A DNA stretch of 11,091 nt from a virus, in UHGV virus genome UHGV-0030812. One strand, given 5' to 3'. Below are positions 4,871-10,839 of this stretch, piece by piece. Made by a program: the position numbers and the translations under genes. The notes beneath the pieces are model-generated. The model saw only the letters and a list, made by a program, of their open reading frames with translations, made no database searches and was not told the DNA's origin. Numbering within the stretch: the stretch's first letter is position 1; every line of letters starts with the position of its first letter.

Positions 4871-4919
4871 ATTTATTTTTACCCCCTCGTTTAAAAAGTT
4901 TTGAGTTGTGCCTCCCCTT

Positions 4920-5145
4920 GTCTACCTTATCTACCTTAGTGGCCCTCATACCAGTAATGGCGCGGCTTTCAGCGGGGTAGAGTGCTTTTATCCACTATCT
5001 ACCCCGTGTCTACCTCCCTGTCTGATTCAGGTAAAATCAGGTAGAGAGGGTAGATAGTGGGTAGACAGTAAAAAAAGGCTATCTACCTAACTTAATGCAC
5101 TGAATTAAATGTATTTTTCTTTACTCAGGTAGACAGGGTAGACAG
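4920..5145. repeat. Iteron cluster, candidate replication origin: at least 10 copies of GGTAGA(C/G/T)AG / (C/T)TCTACC in both orientations
   Basis: Copies at 4920-4926, 4929-4935, 4976-4982, 4997-5004, 5008-5014, 5040-5046, 5049-5057, 5059-5068, 5081-5087, 5128-5136 and 5137-5145. Located immediately 3' of the primase/helicase gene, the usual position of a satellite ori. Confidence 0.6.
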
Positions 5146-5158
5146 CAATTACAAAAAA

Positions 5159-6913
5159 TTATAAAAACGCGTCGCACTCGTCTGTTGTTATTGCGTTAGT
5201 CTGCGTTACTCCCTTAACTTTCCGCGTAATATATTCATGTCCGTAAACTTTCGCGGCTGGCTTCATAGCCTTGCCAAAGTCATTTACGTTTAGCGGTTTG
5301 CTCCTGCCTGCGTACGCCATAAACGCCAGATAGACGCGGTAAAGACTGTTTCTGGTCGTGTACTTCACTGAATCGCCACCGCCGCCCATCATCAGGCCGC
5401 GTGCTTCCTCCAGAAAATTCAGGAACTGGCAAAACTCAATAACCGGATCCGTCTGTTGCTTTATTGCCAGAGCTTCATCACCGTCACGCTGTTCCAGTAG
5501 TAAAGCCCTCGCCTTCTCAGGGTCGGTAAAGTTCGCCAGCAATCGGCGGATAATGACAGGGATTTCAGCCGCGATCTTTTCCGGTAGCTCCCTGTCTTTT
5601 TCGGCCTCACTGACGATATTGTCGAAACGGAAAATCACGCGACGACGTGCCACACCTCCGGCCCGTTCGGTGAATATCATCGGGTTATTGTTGGTCGCCA
5701 GCACCACCGCCCTGATTACAGCCGTGAAACGCTTTTCGTATTTCGGGTTAATTTCCACGGGGTCACCGCCCGTGATTTTCTTGATGCCCGTTCCTTCGCC
5801 TGTATATTTCGGCTGGTCAGCCAGGACGATAAGACGACTCCCGACAACCTGCGCACGTCCACCAGCATCATCAAGCGATGTCATTTCAGCGCTTACCGTG
5901 TTCTGTTTCCCTGCCAGAAGGCTGGCTATGTGTGTGAATGTACTTTTACCGCTCCCGCCGTCTCCGGTGGCCTCAATAAACATCTGCCAGTCGTACCGGT
6001 TCGCCATAATCATGTACAGCGCGGCACATATACGCATCATCTTGCGCGGGTCTTTTCCGGCTGCGTGCTCAAGCCATTTATGAAAGTTTGGCGCGTTATC
6101 GCGGATGTTCTCCCCTGGTGCTGGTGGCGTGTACTCAATGCCGTTGTGCGTGGTGATCCAGTTCTCCGGCGTGTGCGGGGAAAATTCCCCCGTTTTCAGG
6201 TCAAGCGCACCATTGGCGAACGGCAACAAATCGCCGGACGGCTCGCCCATTGGTTCGGCAATAACTTTTAACGCTTCCACGGCGTTATTGATTACGCGCT
6301 TGCTGAAAGTGGCCCTGTGCTCTGAATAGATCGCCACCATTTCGCGGCTAAGTTCCATTGTGCTGACCGGACACCATACCCCGCCGCGCCATACGTGAAC
6401 GATTTCACTTTCAGGATGTACGCAAACGCCATCAAAGCGATCGGCAAGCAGCTGCGCGCGCTCACTGTCCGCCATCTGCGAAAGTTGCGCCTTTTGCTTT
6501 ACCGGAAGCTCAATGACCAGACCATCAGAAAGATTCTGGCGCTCACGGGCCAGATATTCGCGCCAGTTCTCCACCTTCTGACCGTGCATACCATCAGGGT
6601 AAAAATTTGCATCCTGTACGCCTGCCGCCGCCAGCTTCTGACCAATCGCCTTTATCATTACTGGCGCAAGATATCCGGCCCTGAATATGCGCACGGATTT
6701 TCTGCCTTCCGGCACAATTTGCAGCTTATCCAGTTCGGATAACTGCTGCTCCCCAAGCCACACAGGAGGCTCATTATCTCCGGCCATACGCGCGTCATGT
6801 TCCTGCCATTGTTTTGCGTGTGACCAGGCATCACTACCCGCAAAAATAATGACTTCTGTTTCTTTGTGTTTTATGCCGCGTGACTGCTGTTTTACGTTCG
6901 GTGCCAGTTTCAT
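5159..6913 (-). CDS. Replication initiator: primase fused to a P4-alpha / D5-type SF3 helicase domain (Pri-Rep)
   Basis: 584 aa; Walker A GDGGSGKST and downstream LIVLAD-type Walker B in the C-terminal half. Size and layout typical of P4-family/PICI primase-helicases. ATG overlaps the upstream stop (ATGA). Confidence 0.85.
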   Translation of the reverse strand: MKLAPNVKQQSRGIKHKETEVIIFAGSDAWSHAKQWQEHDARMAGDNEPPVWLGEQQLSELDKLQIVPEGRKSVRIFRAGYLAPVMIKAIGQKLAAAGVQDANFYPDGMHGQKVENWREYLARERQNLSDGLVIELPVKQKAQLSQMADSERAQLLADRFDGVCVHPESEIVHVWRGGVWCPVSTMELSREMVAIYSEHRATFSKRVINNAVEALKVIAEPMGEPSGDLLPFANGALDLKTGEFSPHTPENWITTHNGIEYTPPAPGENIRDNAPNFHKWLEHAAGKDPRKMMRICAALYMIMANRYDWQMFIEATGDGGSGKSTFTHIASLLAGKQNTVSAEMTSLDDAGGRAQVVGSRLIVLADQPKYTGEGTGIKKITGGDPVEINPKYEKRFTAVIRAVVLATNNNPMIFTERAGGVARRRVIFRFDNIVSEAEKDRELPEKIAAEIPVIIRRLLANFTDPEKARALLLEQRDGDEALAIKQQTDPVIEFCQFLNFLEEARGLMMGGGGDSVKYTTRNSLYRVYLAFMAYAGRSKPLNVNDFGKAMKPAAKVYGHEYITRKVKGVTQTNAITTDECDAFL

Positions 6914-7209
6914 TTTTTACCCCTGAATCCGTTAATCATGGTTTTCAGCTTCTGGATGTTTGCCCGTGCCCTGGCGTTGCTGGTGGGCACGTTATGCGGC
7001 GCGGTCTGTACCAGAGAAAAATCACGCCGGAACTGATAAACAGGCATCACGCAATCATATTCGTAACCTTCACGGCGGTAGGTTACGCGCCGTTCTTCCA
7101 CGCCCTTAATCATTACCGTGCCGCCGTACTGGTCGCGGTAAATATCGCCGCGCGTAAATTTAGGGTGAGTGTTGCCACTGGCAGTTAAGCCAGAATATTT
7201 AAGTTTCAT
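6910..7209 (-). CDS. Hypothetical protein, 99 aa, translationally coupled to the primase gene
   Basis: ATG at 7209-7207 with GGAGAA Shine-Dalgarno; stop overlaps the primase ATG. No family recognised. Confidence 0.55.
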   Translation of the reverse strand: MKLKYSGLTASGNTHPKFTRGDIYRDQYGGTVMIKGVEERRVTYRREGYEYDCVMPVYQFRRDFSLVQTAPHNVPTSNARARANIQKLKTMINGFRGKK

Positions 7210-7279: not shown

Positions 7280-7417
7280 TTACAGGCTCAATTTTTGTTT
7301 GTCGCGTTCATTGTCGCCAAGTGTTTCAAGCCATATGCGTAATATTTCCATCATGCTTTCACTGTGAGAAAGTGCAAGAAATGCGCGGTCTATTGTTTCA
7401 AGGTAAATATCACGCAT
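7280..7417 (-). CDS. Small ORF, 45 aa (MRDIYLETIDRAFLALSHSESMMEILRIWLETLGDNERDKQKLSL), absent from the ORF track
   Basis: ATG at 7417-7415 lies 1 nt after the orf73 stop, with GGGGA 5 nt upstream; TAA at 7282-7280. Hand-translated; fills an otherwise empty 200-bp gap in a tightly packed operon. Confidence 0.35.
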   Translation of the reverse strand: MRDIYLETIDRAFLALSHSESMMEILRIWLETLGDNERDKQKLSL

Positions 7418-7640: not shown

Positions 7641-7873
7641 AACCCCCCCCCATTTTCACAATCAGCAATCAGGATGGCTTTAGCCTCATTCAGCGCCATA
7701 TCCGCACTAAGTTGCATAACCGCCAGCGAATGAGGAACGAAAGCCCCTGCATATTCTGTTTCACTGGTGGCGTGCTTATGCGCCATGTCAGCAATAACAG
7801 AAATATCAATAAGCGCGTGCATCAGCGTAGTGAGCGCGGCGGCTGCTGCGTCCGGTGTGGTTTTATTGCACAT
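7613..7873 (-). CDS. Hypothetical protein, 86 aa from the ATG with the AGGAGG Shine-Dalgarno
   Basis: AGGAGG sits 7 nt upstream of the ATG at 7873-7871, so the ORF-track start at 7915 is probably too long. The ATG overlaps the end of the Icd-like gene. Ends ENGGG LCVMIVLIP* right after the G9 tract. Confidence 0.5.
   Translation of the reverse strand: MCNKTTPDAAAAALTTLMHALIDISVIADMAHKHATSETEYAGAFVPHSLAVMQLSADMALNEAKAILIADCENGGGLCVMIVLIP
7643..7651. repeat. Homopolymer C9 (G9 on the coding strand) at the orf86/orf73 junction
   Basis: Read directly; the two ORFs overlap across it in different frames. Confidence 0.9.
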
Positions 7874-8063
7874 GGCACACCTCCTGACGAATACGGGCGG
7901 CGAATACAGCAACACAACCGGACGGGCAACGGCTACGCGCTTCGCGTTCCGTCCAGGCGGTTACGTGGATGATTTGAGATTCTCCGGCACTTAGTGCCAG
8001 AAAACGCCACACAAAGGCAGTTTGTGTGTGCGCCAGACGTGGGGTATGCTGTGTTCCAGCCAT
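7863..8063 (-). CDS. Small protein (66 aa) resembling the Icd-like family of P4-type elements; first gene of the leftward replication operon
   Basis: ATG at 8063-8061 with AGGAG 7 nt upstream. Sequence MAGTQHTPRLAHTQTAFVWRFLALS...TEREARSRCP...FAARIRQE matches my recollection of Icd-like proteins (unverified). The ORF track shows it only as the tail of an implausible 378-aa read-through ORF. Confidence 0.5.
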   Translation of the reverse strand: MAGTQHTPRLAHTQTAFVWRFLALSAGESQIIHVTAWTEREARSRCPSGCVAVFAARIRQEVCHVQ

Positions 8064-8151
8064 AATCGTTACTCCTGTTAACGGTTTGGTTAGACGCCCC
8101 GCTACTGCCGCAAACAGTTCGGGGCGTTGTCGTTTACATCCTCTTACTGAG

Positions 8152-8228
8152 GTGTGATTTAAATTAAATTCAACTGAATCACAGGTCAAGTGTTTTTTGT
8201 GATTCTTTTTTGTGTATACTGAATCACA
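8152..8228. promoter_or_regulatory. Divergent promoter/operator region with two inverted-repeat sites: TGTGATT-N15-TGAATCACA (8153-8183) and TGTGATTC-N14-TGAATCACA (8198-8228)
   Basis: Repeats read directly. They lie between the leftward operon (start 8063) and the rightward RHH gene (start 8251). The second site overlaps a TATACT -10 candidate (8215-8220). Confidence 0.5.
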
Positions 8229-8250
8229 TCTTTTGTTTAGGAGAATGCAC

Positions 8251-8556
8251 ATGGCAAAAAACACTATCAACGACAAATCAAAACAGATTTCAATTCGTAT
8301 CCCACATGATGCTTTTGATGGCATGGAATCCGTAAAACTGGACGGCGAAAGCAACGCCGGATTCATAGTAACCGCCATGCGCGGGGAGATCGCCCGCCGC
8401 CAGGCAGAAGGAAGCAGTGAAAATCCTCTGATTTCTTCTCTCGATGCATTGGCGCAAGTGGAAAAAATTGGTATTAAAGCTACGGAAGAACTCGGGCAAC
8501 TTATCGCCATCGCTCGTGAAGAACTACAGCGCCGCAAGGCCAAAGAATCAGAATAA
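8251..8556 (+). CDS. Ribbon-helix-helix (CopG/Arc-type) DNA-binding protein; candidate repressor of the element
   Basis: 101 aa from the ATG at 8251, with GGAGA 7 nt upstream (the ORF-track GTG start at 8212 is probably too long). N-terminal KQISIRIPHDAFDGMESV...AGFIVTAMRGEIARR fits a beta-strand/helix/helix RHH fold. Divergent from the replication operon. Confidence 0.6.
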   Translation: MAKNTINDKSKQISIRIPHDAFDGMESVKLDGESNAGFIVTAMRGEIARRQAEGSSENPLISSLDALAQVEKIGIKATEELGQLIAIAREELQRRKAKESE

Positions 8557-8598
8557 TCACTATCAGCGCCGTGGTGTGAGGTATTACGGCGCATTGCT

Positions 8599-8787
8599 AT
8601 GCAGGACAACACAATGACCGATAAAGAATTGACCAAAACATTATCACCGGCACGGAAAAGACGGCGCAGAAAGATAGAGCATGAATCAGAAAGATTCGCG
8701 CCATGTGCTTTTGCCCTTGAGCAATTCCTTAAAGAATACAGGGAAAAGCGCTCATTGCAGGTATGGCAACGAACTGAACCAGACTGA
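8599..8787 (+). CDS. Hypothetical small basic protein, 62 aa (KRRRRK motif)
   Basis: ORF downstream of the RHH gene, ending before the 8883-8910 terminator. No convincing Shine-Dalgarno, so weakly supported. Confidence 0.3.
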   Translation: MQDNTMTDKELTKTLSPARKRRRRKIEHESERFAPCAFALEQFLKEYREKRSLQVWQRTEPD

Positions 8788-8882
8788 TTGCATTGCCCAC
8801 CAGCCTGATAGCGGCTATCATCCCCGTGCTTATGTTTGGGATCACACACACAAACGGCGCAGCGGGTTATCTGTTCAGAAAG

Positions 8883-8910
8883 GCGGCTCCATTTCGGGGC
8901 CGCTTTTTTT
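8883..8910 (+). terminator. Rho-independent terminator for the rightward RHH transcript
   Basis: GCGGCTCC-atttc-GGGGCCGC (8-bp stem, one G-U pair) followed by T7. Confidence 0.7.
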
Positions 8911-9056
8911 ATGCCTGAAAAACCCCAATTTTGTGGTTTTCCAGTCTCACCAGGGCGAACGAATCCCCGCCCACGTTCTGGCGTATATTCAATCTTCATG
9001 GTTATAGCTCTGTGTTCAGATGATTGATGTGTGGCGGCTGCGTGCCGCCAGCGTGA

Positions 9057-9245
9057 TTAATGAACTGCCTTGCAGCTATCCTTCCAGGCCAGAACCTCGG
9101 ATAAAGACCAGCCAACGGAACGACCGCTAAGTTTACGACGTGATGGGAATTGTCCGGCCTTTTCCAGGCGGTAGCGGCATGAGCGGCTAAGGCCTGTTAG
9201 CTTTTCGCATTCTTTTTCACGTATAAACCGATCAGTGCTTAACAC
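9057..9245 (-). CDS. alpA: AlpA-family transcriptional regulator (phage/satellite excisionase-like HTH)
   Basis: 62 aa, GTG start with AAGGGGG Shine-Dalgarno. LTGLSRSCRYRLEKAGQFPSRRKLSGRSVGWSLSEVLAW is the canonical AlpA pattern. Immediately upstream of int on the same strand. Confidence 0.85.
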   Translation of the reverse strand: MLSTDRFIREKECEKLTGLSRSCRYRLEKAGQFPSRRKLSGRSVGWSLSEVLAWKDSCKAVH

Positions 9246-9609: not shown

Positions 9610-10839
9610 TTATTTTCTTCTGGCTACTGGTAGCGTGGTTACGTTTTCATGTGTTCCCGCCAGTATCCCTAACCGCTCCGTCCACATATCCAGCGCATTG
9701 CGTTTAGCATCCAGATAACGGGAATGATTATAAACTCGCTGCATTCCTGGCATCTGGTGGCCTGTAAGCTGCTCCACGACATGCGGATCAACGCCTAAAT
9801 CGTTCAGCATGGTTGTAAAGGTGCGCCGGATGTCATGCAGTGACCAGTGAGGATGATTAAGCCTCCTGTGCGCTAATCTTCCATACTGCGATACGCTGGC
9901 CTCCTGTTTCACTTCCCCCAGCAATAAGCCCGTGTGCCTGTTCTGCTCCACCAGCTGCGTGACGAACGGCAGGATCGCTTCCGGTATGGGCCGGAATATT
10001 GCGACCTTCGTTTTGCTGTGCTCCTTCGGAACGGTCCATAGCATTTCCGTAAAATCCCACTCCCCGATCTCCGATAACCTCAGTTCTACCGTTCTGGCTC
10101 CGAAGACAATCAGGAGGCGGATTAACGCGACGTAGTAAGGGGAGAATATTTTTTTGTCCAGTGCCTGCAATAATTCGCCAAGTTCTTTGTTACTTAAGAC
10201 ACGTTCGCTTATATCCGGTTTTTTCCCAACGTCCGCCACGTTCAGATCGTCCAGAACGTTGCTGATTGCATAGCGCCGCCTACGGCAGAACTTAAGCGCC
10301 TGTTTGCACGCCTGTAGCACGAATCCGGCAGTAACAGGCGTTCGCTTTGCCACCTGGTCAAAACAGGCCAGCCAGTGCCGTAGCTCGCATTTATCCAGCG
10401 GCATAGCACCAATCTGCTGTATTACGTGATTATTAAGTCGCCTTTTCAGGGCGATATAATCCACGCGGTTTTCCTTTACGTAATACTCAAGCCAGTAGGT
10501 GAGCGCATCGCCAACCGTTACGGGCTTTAACGCTTCCTGTACGGTGTAATTCATCTCATGACGTGGATTTTTCCCCTCAGCCAGCCATGTGCGACACTGT
10601 GCGGCTTTTTCCCTGGCTGCTTTCAGGCTCAGATCAGGATAACTTCCCAGCTTAATGCGTTCGGGTCGTGTCTCCCTTCCCGTTCCGGCCCTGTATGTGA
10701 AATACCAGGTCAATTTCCCTGATGTTAAATATTTCACGCTCAGGTTTCCGCCATCACTATAAAACGTGTTTTTCTCCGCTGGCTTACCATGAAGTTTCCT
10801 TAGCAAGGTATCGCTCAGTTTGTTCATTGCTCTGCTCAC
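9610..10839 (-). CDS. int: Tyrosine recombinase, P4-type integrase
   Basis: 409 aa. Catalytic signature: R in ARTVELR, HDIRRTF (H-x-x-R), GHQMPGMQRVYNHSRY (H and Y nucleophile); N-terminal arm-binding-type domain. Start may be GTG at 10839 (AGAGGGGG upstream) or ATG at 10827. Confidence 0.9.
   Translation of the reverse strand: MSRAMNKLSDTLLRKLHGKPAEKNTFYSDGGNLSVKYLTSGKLTWYFTYRAGTGRETRPERIKLGSYPDLSLKAAREKAAQCRTWLAEGKNPRHEMNYTVQEALKPVTVGDALTYWLEYYVKENRVDYIALKRRLNNHVIQQIGAMPLDKCELRHWLACFDQVAKRTPVTAGFVLQACKQALKFCRRRRYAISNVLDDLNVADVGKKPDISERVLSNKELGELLQALDKKIFSPYYVALIRLLIVFGARTVELRLSEIGEWDFTEMLWTVPKEHSKTKVAIFRPIPEAILPFVTQLVEQNRHTGLLLGEVKQEASVSQYGRLAHRRLNHPHWSLHDIRRTFTTMLNDLGVDPHVVEQLTGHQMPGMQRVYNHSRYLDAKRNALDMWTERLGILAGTHENVTTLPVARRK

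Follow-up and report, generated by a model that had tools for sequence, protein, structure and literature searches.

We identified a small ribbon-helix-helix (RHH) protein of the YlcI/YnfO family that probably acts as an autoregulated repressor of the early/replication operon of a phage-inducible chromosomal island (PICI), by way of four short half-sites that cover both its own promoter and that of the operon. The window, the whole stretch of 11,091 nucleotides analysed here, carries the gene at 8251-8556 on the plus strand. The module is a familiar kind of RHH repressor-operator pair, from an uncharacterised family and in an unusual layout. [quoted passage not shown] The RHH module may be the repressor that these islands were thought to lack.

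Island type and gene order

Apart from 30 bp missing near 7291, the window is a 99.95% match to an island in E. coli strain 300709 (NZ_CP025903.1), where the insertion interrupts tqsA. An ORF at 7280-7417, in the region of the missing 30 bp, encodes 45 aa in the window, and its counterpart in NZ_CP025903.1 is annotated as 77 aa. The genes follow the order int and alpA, then a primase/SSB replication module, then a late module, within about 11 kb and inside a chromosomal gene; judged by this layout, the window is an EcCICFT073-type PICI in E. coli tqsA. The late modules of the window and EcCICFT073 have in common a 207-nt ORF, a 1056-nt capsid gene, a 336-nt decoration gene and others, and their order matches too.

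The minus strand carries the integrase (9610-10839), alpA (9057-9245; Pfam PF05930, E = 1.9e-17) and an operon headed by an Icd-like gene (7863-8063; NCBIfam NF033153, E = 5.7e-18). This operon runs leftward through three small ORFs and DUF4222 (6910-7209) to a replication gene, the D5_N/P4-type primase (5159-6913). After the primase, in minus-strand order, come SSB, a 68-aa ORF, major capsid, head decoration and three further ORFs. The plus strand carries only two genes, the RHH gene, which is convergent with alpA, and a 62-codon ORF (orf62, 8599-8787). The Icd-like protein is named a cell-division inhibitor by NCBI, and it hits the PHROGs 'transcriptional repressor' families phrog_1743 (E = 1e-24) and phrog_6196 (E = 1.5e-18).

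Helper-phage induction and packaging have been demonstrated for EcCICFT073 only; in this island AlpA activates the island genes and its own promoter, and over-expression of AlpA alone is sufficient for induction (PMC6092414). Such islands have been split into integration, Bro, replication and late zones in an account that names immunity RNAs, in which the P4 CI RNA also appears and from which the RHH protein is absent (PMC10111431). A 2026 survey lists YlcI/YnfO merely as a 'prophage-associated protein'. In the literature searched, coverage of which was incomplete, we found no functional study of YlcI, YnfO, DUF3950 or an RHH/CopG repressor in PICIs.

The RHH protein

The gene has an AGGAGA Shine-Dalgarno sequence at 8239-8244 and encodes 101 aa. 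The RHH domain spans about residues 9-54, and a linker connects it to a long helix (59-100). Residues 9-50 pass the cut-off of NCBIfam NF041551 (YlcI/YnfO; E = 2.8e-18, 65.7 bits vs 30), and YlcI/YnfO is the name that PGAP gives to the gene in E. coli genomes. The island form consists of YlcI/YnfO plus the C-terminal helix (phrog_6522). The full-length gene is present in 654 of 5426 complete E. coli genomes, and also in many other Enterobacterales.

Hallmarks of RHH proteins are a G-x-S/T/N turn preceding helix 2 and an N-terminal strand of alternating polar and hydrophobic residues. The window protein has a D-G-E-S-N turn at 31-35, before helix 2 and with E33 invariant, and the alternating strand K-Q-I-S-I-R-I-P, in which R16 and P18 are invariant in the alignment. 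AlphaFold models, which are of single chains, place an extended N-terminus ahead of helices 19-28 and 35-54 (residues 1-57, pLDDT 84.7), the strand-helix-helix order of about 45 residues that defines the fold, and give residues 59-100 as one long amphipathic helix. The nearest folds include the RHH antitoxins Rv0298, ParD, HicB and TacA.

No curated RHH sequence family was matched above threshold, the best Pfam match being PSK_trans_fac at 16.5 bits vs a cut-off of 28.3. We take this family, an Rv0623-like transcription factor in Pfam's description, to belong to the RHH proteins; sub-threshold matches to it were found in 20 of 27 homologues (best E = 0.0011). A search of PDB sequences returned no RHH relative. 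Its best match (E = 0.012) aligned residues 46-86 (window 8386-8508, LSSLDALAQVEKIGIKATEEL) with the helix-hairpin-helix region of Hef; I73-G74 is invariant inside this segment, and AlphaFold nonetheless gives one unbroken helix. A tblastn search of the protein against 50,697 phage records gave zero matches. The original prediction of an RHH regulator is thus upheld by the modelled fold and the motif but not by a curated RHH sequence family, and it is on fold, rather than family membership, that we accept the N-terminal domain as a supported RHH domain.

Repeats and half-sites

The original prediction placed two repeat sites, about 45 bp apart, between the RHH gene and the divergent Icd-like gene, and both their presence and their location are borne out. 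TGTGATT-N17-AATCACA occurs at 8153-8183 (TGTGATTTAAATTAAATTCAACTGAATCACA) and at 8198-8228 (TGTGATTCTTTTTTGTGTATACTGAATCACA), in a 45-bp register; TGTGATT-N13-17-AATCACA has 2 matches in the window and 0 in 200 dinucleotide-preserving shuffles. An 11-nt direct repeat (ACTGAATCACA) reappears after exactly 45 bp, and the arms TGTGATTC and GAATCACA are 100% complementary. Over the 11 kb scanned, exact TGTGATTYA is confined to 8153, 8175 (minus) and 8220 (minus), and a one-mismatch copy is found at 8198. A CRP site (TGTGA-N6-TCACA) was ruled out because the spacing here is 21 bp.

The four half-sites are H1 (8153-8161, plus, TGTGATTTA), H2 (8175-8183, minus, TGTGATTCA), H3 (8198-8206, plus, TGTGATTCT, with the one mismatch) and H4 (8220-8228, minus, TGTGATTCA), and their centres are 24, 21 and 24 bp apart. 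For comparison we assembled 100 related loci, 20 of them from a profile scan (9 loci) and exact-protein look-ups and 80 more from IMG/VR. The set of 20 covers E. coli, Serratia, Edwardsiella, Yersinia, Klebsiella, Enterobacter, Xenorhabdus, Photorhabdus, Pantoea, Lelliottia, Phytobacter and Erwinia. In every locus with an examined neighbourhood the RHH gene is divergent from an operon led by an Icd-like gene, and it nearly always converges on alpA, or on AntA/Bro-N genes situated after alpA. Repeats lie at about -98, -75, -53 and -30 from the RHH start codon in nearly every locus (the equivalent of H1 at about -98 from the ATG, 21 loci).

The orientation of the half-sites is forward, reverse, forward, reverse in the window class, and forward, forward, reverse, reverse in Pantoea, Lelliottia and E. 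coli O170:H18. Because the inner half-sites are flipped in some specificity classes, the palindrome is not what is conserved. The description of the sites as paired inverted-repeat operators therefore holds for the window, where both repeats are present, but the conserved unit across the loci is a set of four 9-bp half-sites spaced at about 22-23 bp (about two helical turns) and not two palindromes. An in-place flip of an asymmetric site is neutral for a two-fold-symmetric dimer, so the flipped half-sites would fit one RHH dimer per half-site. A fifth half-site, one more two-turn step into the icd leader at about -120 from the RHH ATG, was seen in loci L018, L012, L013, L014, L010 and L016; the window has only the four.

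Predicted divergent promoters

In a generic scan for promoters and terminators over 7900-9100, neither divergent promoter was over threshold and no clear terminator was found between alpA and the RHH gene. Promoters were assigned via hexamers conserved across 21 loci. The predicted -35 of the leftward (icd operon) promoter is TTGACC at 8184-8189 on the minus strand, between H2 and H3; minus-strand matches to TTGACA at 5-6 of 6 positions lie between H2 and H3 in 17 of the 21 loci, and in 16 of these at -67 to -69 from the RHH ATG. Its putative -10 is TAATTT (8161-8166, minus), with a 17-bp spacer, and most of the loci have a TAnnnT-type hexamer 16-18 bp from the leftward -35. For the rightward promoter, of the RHH gene, the likely -10 is TATACT (8215-8220, plus). 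TATA(A/C)T is present at -36, between H3 and H4, in 13 of the 21 loci, and the rightward -35 is T-rich and very poor (2/6) in most.

Transcripts are predicted to start at about 8154 (minus) and 8227 (plus). H1 would then lie over the leftward start and touch the leftward -10, and H2 would occupy part of the leftward spacer, right next to the leftward -35. H3 falls in the spacer/-35 zone of the rightward promoter, and H4 directly follows the rightward -10, over the predicted RHH transcript start. The half-sites are thus near -25 and -3 of both predicted promoters, in mirror symmetry, and occlusion of both promoters is therefore predicted. From this geometry we infer that repression of the icd-primase operon together with autoregulation is the most likely mechanism.

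An antisense open frame from the alpA operon into icd

The icd frame is open for 331 codons upstream of the icd ATG, across the 187-nt operator region and up to the alpA stop codon (7863-8999, 378 codons, minus strand, open to 9056), and so reads antisense to orf62 and the RHH gene and across the operators. It is free of stops in the 190 nt upstream of RHH and antisense to the RHH gene in 41 of 51 unique loci. The other two minus frames have a mean of 5-6 stops in the same 190 nt and are open there in none of the 51. The open frame and RHH share wobble positions, and the probability of the open frame in shuffles is 0.7-3% per locus. Often the frame's first ATG and the stop codon of a preceding AntA/Bro-N-type gene overlap, by 1 nt or 8 nt depending on the arrangement. 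The peptide itself is not conserved and looks non-protein-like, and where the two frames overlap, conservation is always higher in that of RHH. PGAP labels 8442-8999 as a partial 'icd-like' pseudogene. Intact AntA or Bro-N antirepressor-type genes lie between alpA and RHH in L017-L020 (Serratia, Edwardsiella, Yersinia, Klebsiella); the window and EcCICFT073 have only remnants, with a Bro-N-like stretch in the CFT073 frame.

Transcripts of the alpA operon may run on into icd, in which case they would be exposed to Rho-dependent polarity unless ribosomes kept translating them; icd/ant in P1 and kil/eta in P4 follow the same logic. Transcription may be able to continue only if the leader is translated, and such a need would account for the conserved open frame. 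If transcription from the alpA operon into icd is real, AlpA would drive antisense passage over the repressor gene and its operators, and the activator would override the proposed repressor. In such a scheme, AlpA-driven transcription of the alpA/antirepressor operon would be kept translated by an open frame indifferent to its sequence, and the antisense transcription would both silence the repressor and bypass its promoter block. We offer only tentatively, and with considerable doubt, the full proposal: the YlcI/YnfO RHH protein and its four-half-site operator would supply the immunity-type repressor that Gram-negative PICIs have seemed to lack, and would form part of a convergent-transcription switch with an antisense open frame. 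If the missing-repressor reading is true, capsid-forming PICIs are included in it.

The protein could also bind the sites and yet serve mainly as an autoregulator, as a dual regulator like P22 Mnt (which represses one promoter and activates its own) or as a roadblock to transcription from the alpA operon. We consider this unlikely, although several observations agree with it. The conserved open frame reaches from the alpA operon across the operators, the rightward promoter in most loci combines a good -10 with a very poor -35, as is often the case in activator-dependent promoters, and EcCICFT073 is induced by AlpA alone (PMC6092414). However, the mirror symmetry of the sites in both promoters suggests an equal effect on both. 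Moreover, sites at -3 act repressively in known promoters.

Covariation of half-sites and the RHH strand

Half-site sequences fall into at least 8 classes at fixed positions, and each class goes with one version of RHH residues 7-18. In class A, that of the window, residues 7-18 are NDKS(K/R)QISIRIP (NDKSKQISIRIP in the window protein) and the half-site is TGTGATTYA. Other pairs are NAKSQLTTVRVP with GTGTGTTTCA, N(A/T)KSQSLTARIP with GTGTAAG(AC), NAKSQMTT(I/L)RVP with GTGA(G)ATATAC, NNKSQQ(L/I)NARFP with TGG(T/G)ATTCA, KN-containing strands (e.g., NNKSQIKNVRVP) with GGTGTG(T/C)A, and NAKSQALKARVP, found in EcCICFT073, with GGTGTGGCCCA. Across the 100 loci, half-site sequence changes with RHH residues 7-18 alone, one-to-one.

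Operator identity correlates with N-terminal identity at a partial r of 0.69 once C-terminal identity is controlled for, a value reached in 0 of 2000 permutations (43 unique combinations); the reverse partial correlation is 0.11. In E. coli islands outside class A, identity to the window is 84-95% for icd and 68-91% for RHH codons 19-57, but just 62-74% for the operators and 52-59% for RHH codons 1-18. Class-A islands from four other genera are 80-88% identical to the window in the operators, 76-85% in codons 1-18 and 40-48% in icd. Some loci of other classes are close to the window in AlpA (94-97%), Icd (up to 97%) and primase (97%), and there are class-A loci with AlpA at 28-41% identity. 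Class-A half-sites accompany three replicase types (D5_N, DUF927 and Zn-ribbon-Toprim-DUF927), and orf62 is 98-100% identical across three operator classes. AlpA, Icd, primase, DUF4222 and orf62 were ruled out as the specificity partner, as none of them tracks operator class; so were the small leftward ORFs, which do not track class in L013 and L014. Class A never occurs twice in one genome, an observation without power, as just 35 genomes carry it. Cognate pairing of the RHH protein with its operator is, from these comparisons of sequence, strongly supported, with a caveat of linkage because the specificity codons adjoin the half-sites.

The position of the covarying codons immediately beside the half-sites would suit another reading, in which AlpA, the Icd-like protein, a host protein or a helper-phage protein binds the half-sites and the RHH gene covaries as part of a shared recombination block. 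The label 'transcriptional repressor' on the two PHROGs families matched by the Icd-like protein would also suit it. We regard this as quite improbable. Operator class is independent of AlpA, Icd and the other proteins just listed, the boundary of the recombination block is inside the RHH gene, just past the DNA-reading strand, and class-A half-sites are retained across five genera despite the divergence of spacers and flanks.

The short form in EcCICFT073

EcCICFT073 (L023 9474-9653; NC_004431.1 1380473-1380652) encodes only a 59-aa version of YlcI/YnfO, with 51% identity to the window protein over residues 1-51. An internal deletion takes out the long C-terminal helix, and the RHH domain is retained. 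Its H1 and H2 are intact direct repeats of GGTGTGGCCCA, and its H3 and H4 are degenerate. Given this short form, the full-length protein is not needed for quiescence of that island, which limits the original claim of a 'master' repressor. That the model island has the short form may be one reason why the protein went unnoticed.

Neighbouring elements

The second plus-strand gene, orf62, encodes a small basic protein (MQDNTMTDKELTKTLSPARKRRRRKIEHESERFAPCAFALEQFLKEYREKRSLQVWQRTEPD; phrog_21027). EcCICFT073 has an identical copy (100%), and two other E. coli islands have versions with 44-70% identity. Its conservation is limited to E. coli islands: L013 and most other genera lack it, and Klebsiella (L020) has only a partial match of 32 residues. 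On this distribution, orf62 is not a required partner of the RHH gene. It is very unlikely that the RHH protein is an antitoxin, with orf62 its toxin and the repeats serving only the autoregulation of the pair. The RHH antitoxins among the nearest folds, the sub-threshold PSK_trans_fac match and the presence of a small gene downstream in E. coli islands point that way, but the RHH gene and its sites are retained where orf62 is missing, orf62 has no Pfam or NCBIfam family match, and half of the sites lie over the divergent promoter of the icd operon. The conserved adjacent toxin gene that marks a type II toxin-antitoxin system was not found.

We identified a hairpin in the leader of the icd operon (8088-8127, minus strand; stems 8120-8127 and 8094-8101) that is followed by CTAACCA. 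Both are kept in 21 of 21 loci, with compensatory changes in three pairs. The hairpin has no Rfam match; an attenuator, a processing site and an antitermination site are candidates for its function. C4, isrK and the P4-CI immunity RNA had no Rfam match at E <= 1 anywhere in the window. The sole Rfam match in the window, to mir-135 (E = 0.27, 4991-5072), is due to chance and coincides with an iteron palindrome.

That iteron cluster (4914-5148) lies just beyond the 3' end of the primase gene, ahead of the next ORF, and has at least 12 copies of (T/G)(A/G)TCTACC, in both orientations and with nested palindromes. It is a probable replication origin, and its iterons are unrelated to the RHH half-sites. 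Four evenly spaced repeats do resemble the arrays bound by the RHH proteins ParG and omega, but it is extremely unlikely that the half-sites are origin iterons or a centromere-like site rather than operators, as class-A half-sites are found with three replicase types, the separate iteron cluster beside the primase gene removes the idea of origin iterons, and a partition ATPase is not encoded in the window.

Proposed mechanism and comparison with known systems

In the repressor mechanism that we favour, the protein would recognise the four TGTGATTYA half-sites in the 187-bp gap to the icd-like gene. A single RHH dimer probably reads each half-site via the N-terminal strand (residues ~9-17), and the long C-terminal helix probably links dimers bound about 75 Angstrom apart. 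The bound protein would shut the leftward promoter, and with it the icd-like gene, the small ORFs, DUF4222 and the primase, and would also shut its own rightward promoter. Strand and half-sites seem to be swapped jointly, as a specificity cassette. We propose that related islands consequently carry versions that do not cross-react, like phage immunity types. The natural class swaps would be ready-made, orthogonal pairs of small repressors and operators. With a concrete candidate, predicted operators and promoters, and at least eight natural specificity classes, the repressor question becomes directly testable.

NikR is an RHH protein whose E. coli operator is GTATGA-N16-TCATAC. NikR tetramerises through a metal-binding domain; the window protein offers only a helix of 42 residues, and nothing in it points to a ligand site. 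Stl, which with Rpr represents the master repressors of Gram-positive PICIs (SaPIs), has a helix-turn-helix fold, as opposed to the RHH fold of the window protein, and is relieved by helper-phage proteins. No sequence match to Stl/Rpr turned up in the general family and structure searches. Stl/Rpr and the window protein are alike in being encoded divergently from an excision/replication operon and in allelic diversity (PMC6092414).

Within the YlcI/YnfO family (NF041551), the likeness is in the N-terminal 42 residues, which match the profile (65.7 bits vs 30). YnfO of K-12, labelled DUF3950, differs in that it is encoded by a short, 234-nt gene in a lambdoid prophage, beside ydfO and divergent from nohA, and the island form has the added C-terminal helix. 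The P1 immI region (c4-icd-ant) and the P4 left operon (kil/eta, CI RNA) have an Icd-like first ORF and a structured leader. The window operon shares both of these features, but its control appears to be protein-based.

P22 Mnt combines an RHH domain at its N-terminus with a helical oligomerisation domain at its C-terminus, and binds a single 17-bp operator with adjacent half-sites in the immI region. This operator is between divergent promoters, one of which is Mnt's own, and Mnt holds a lytic-type function silent in the quiescent state. No sequence relationship to Mnt is detectable with Pfam or the PDB, although the window protein is likewise small, with its RHH domain ahead of a C-terminal helix and its putative operator between predicted divergent promoters, one of them its own. 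The two differ in the operator, which in the window has four half-sites two turns apart as opposed to one 17-bp operator for Mnt, and in the genes controlled, which are the icd-primase operon here and ant in P22.
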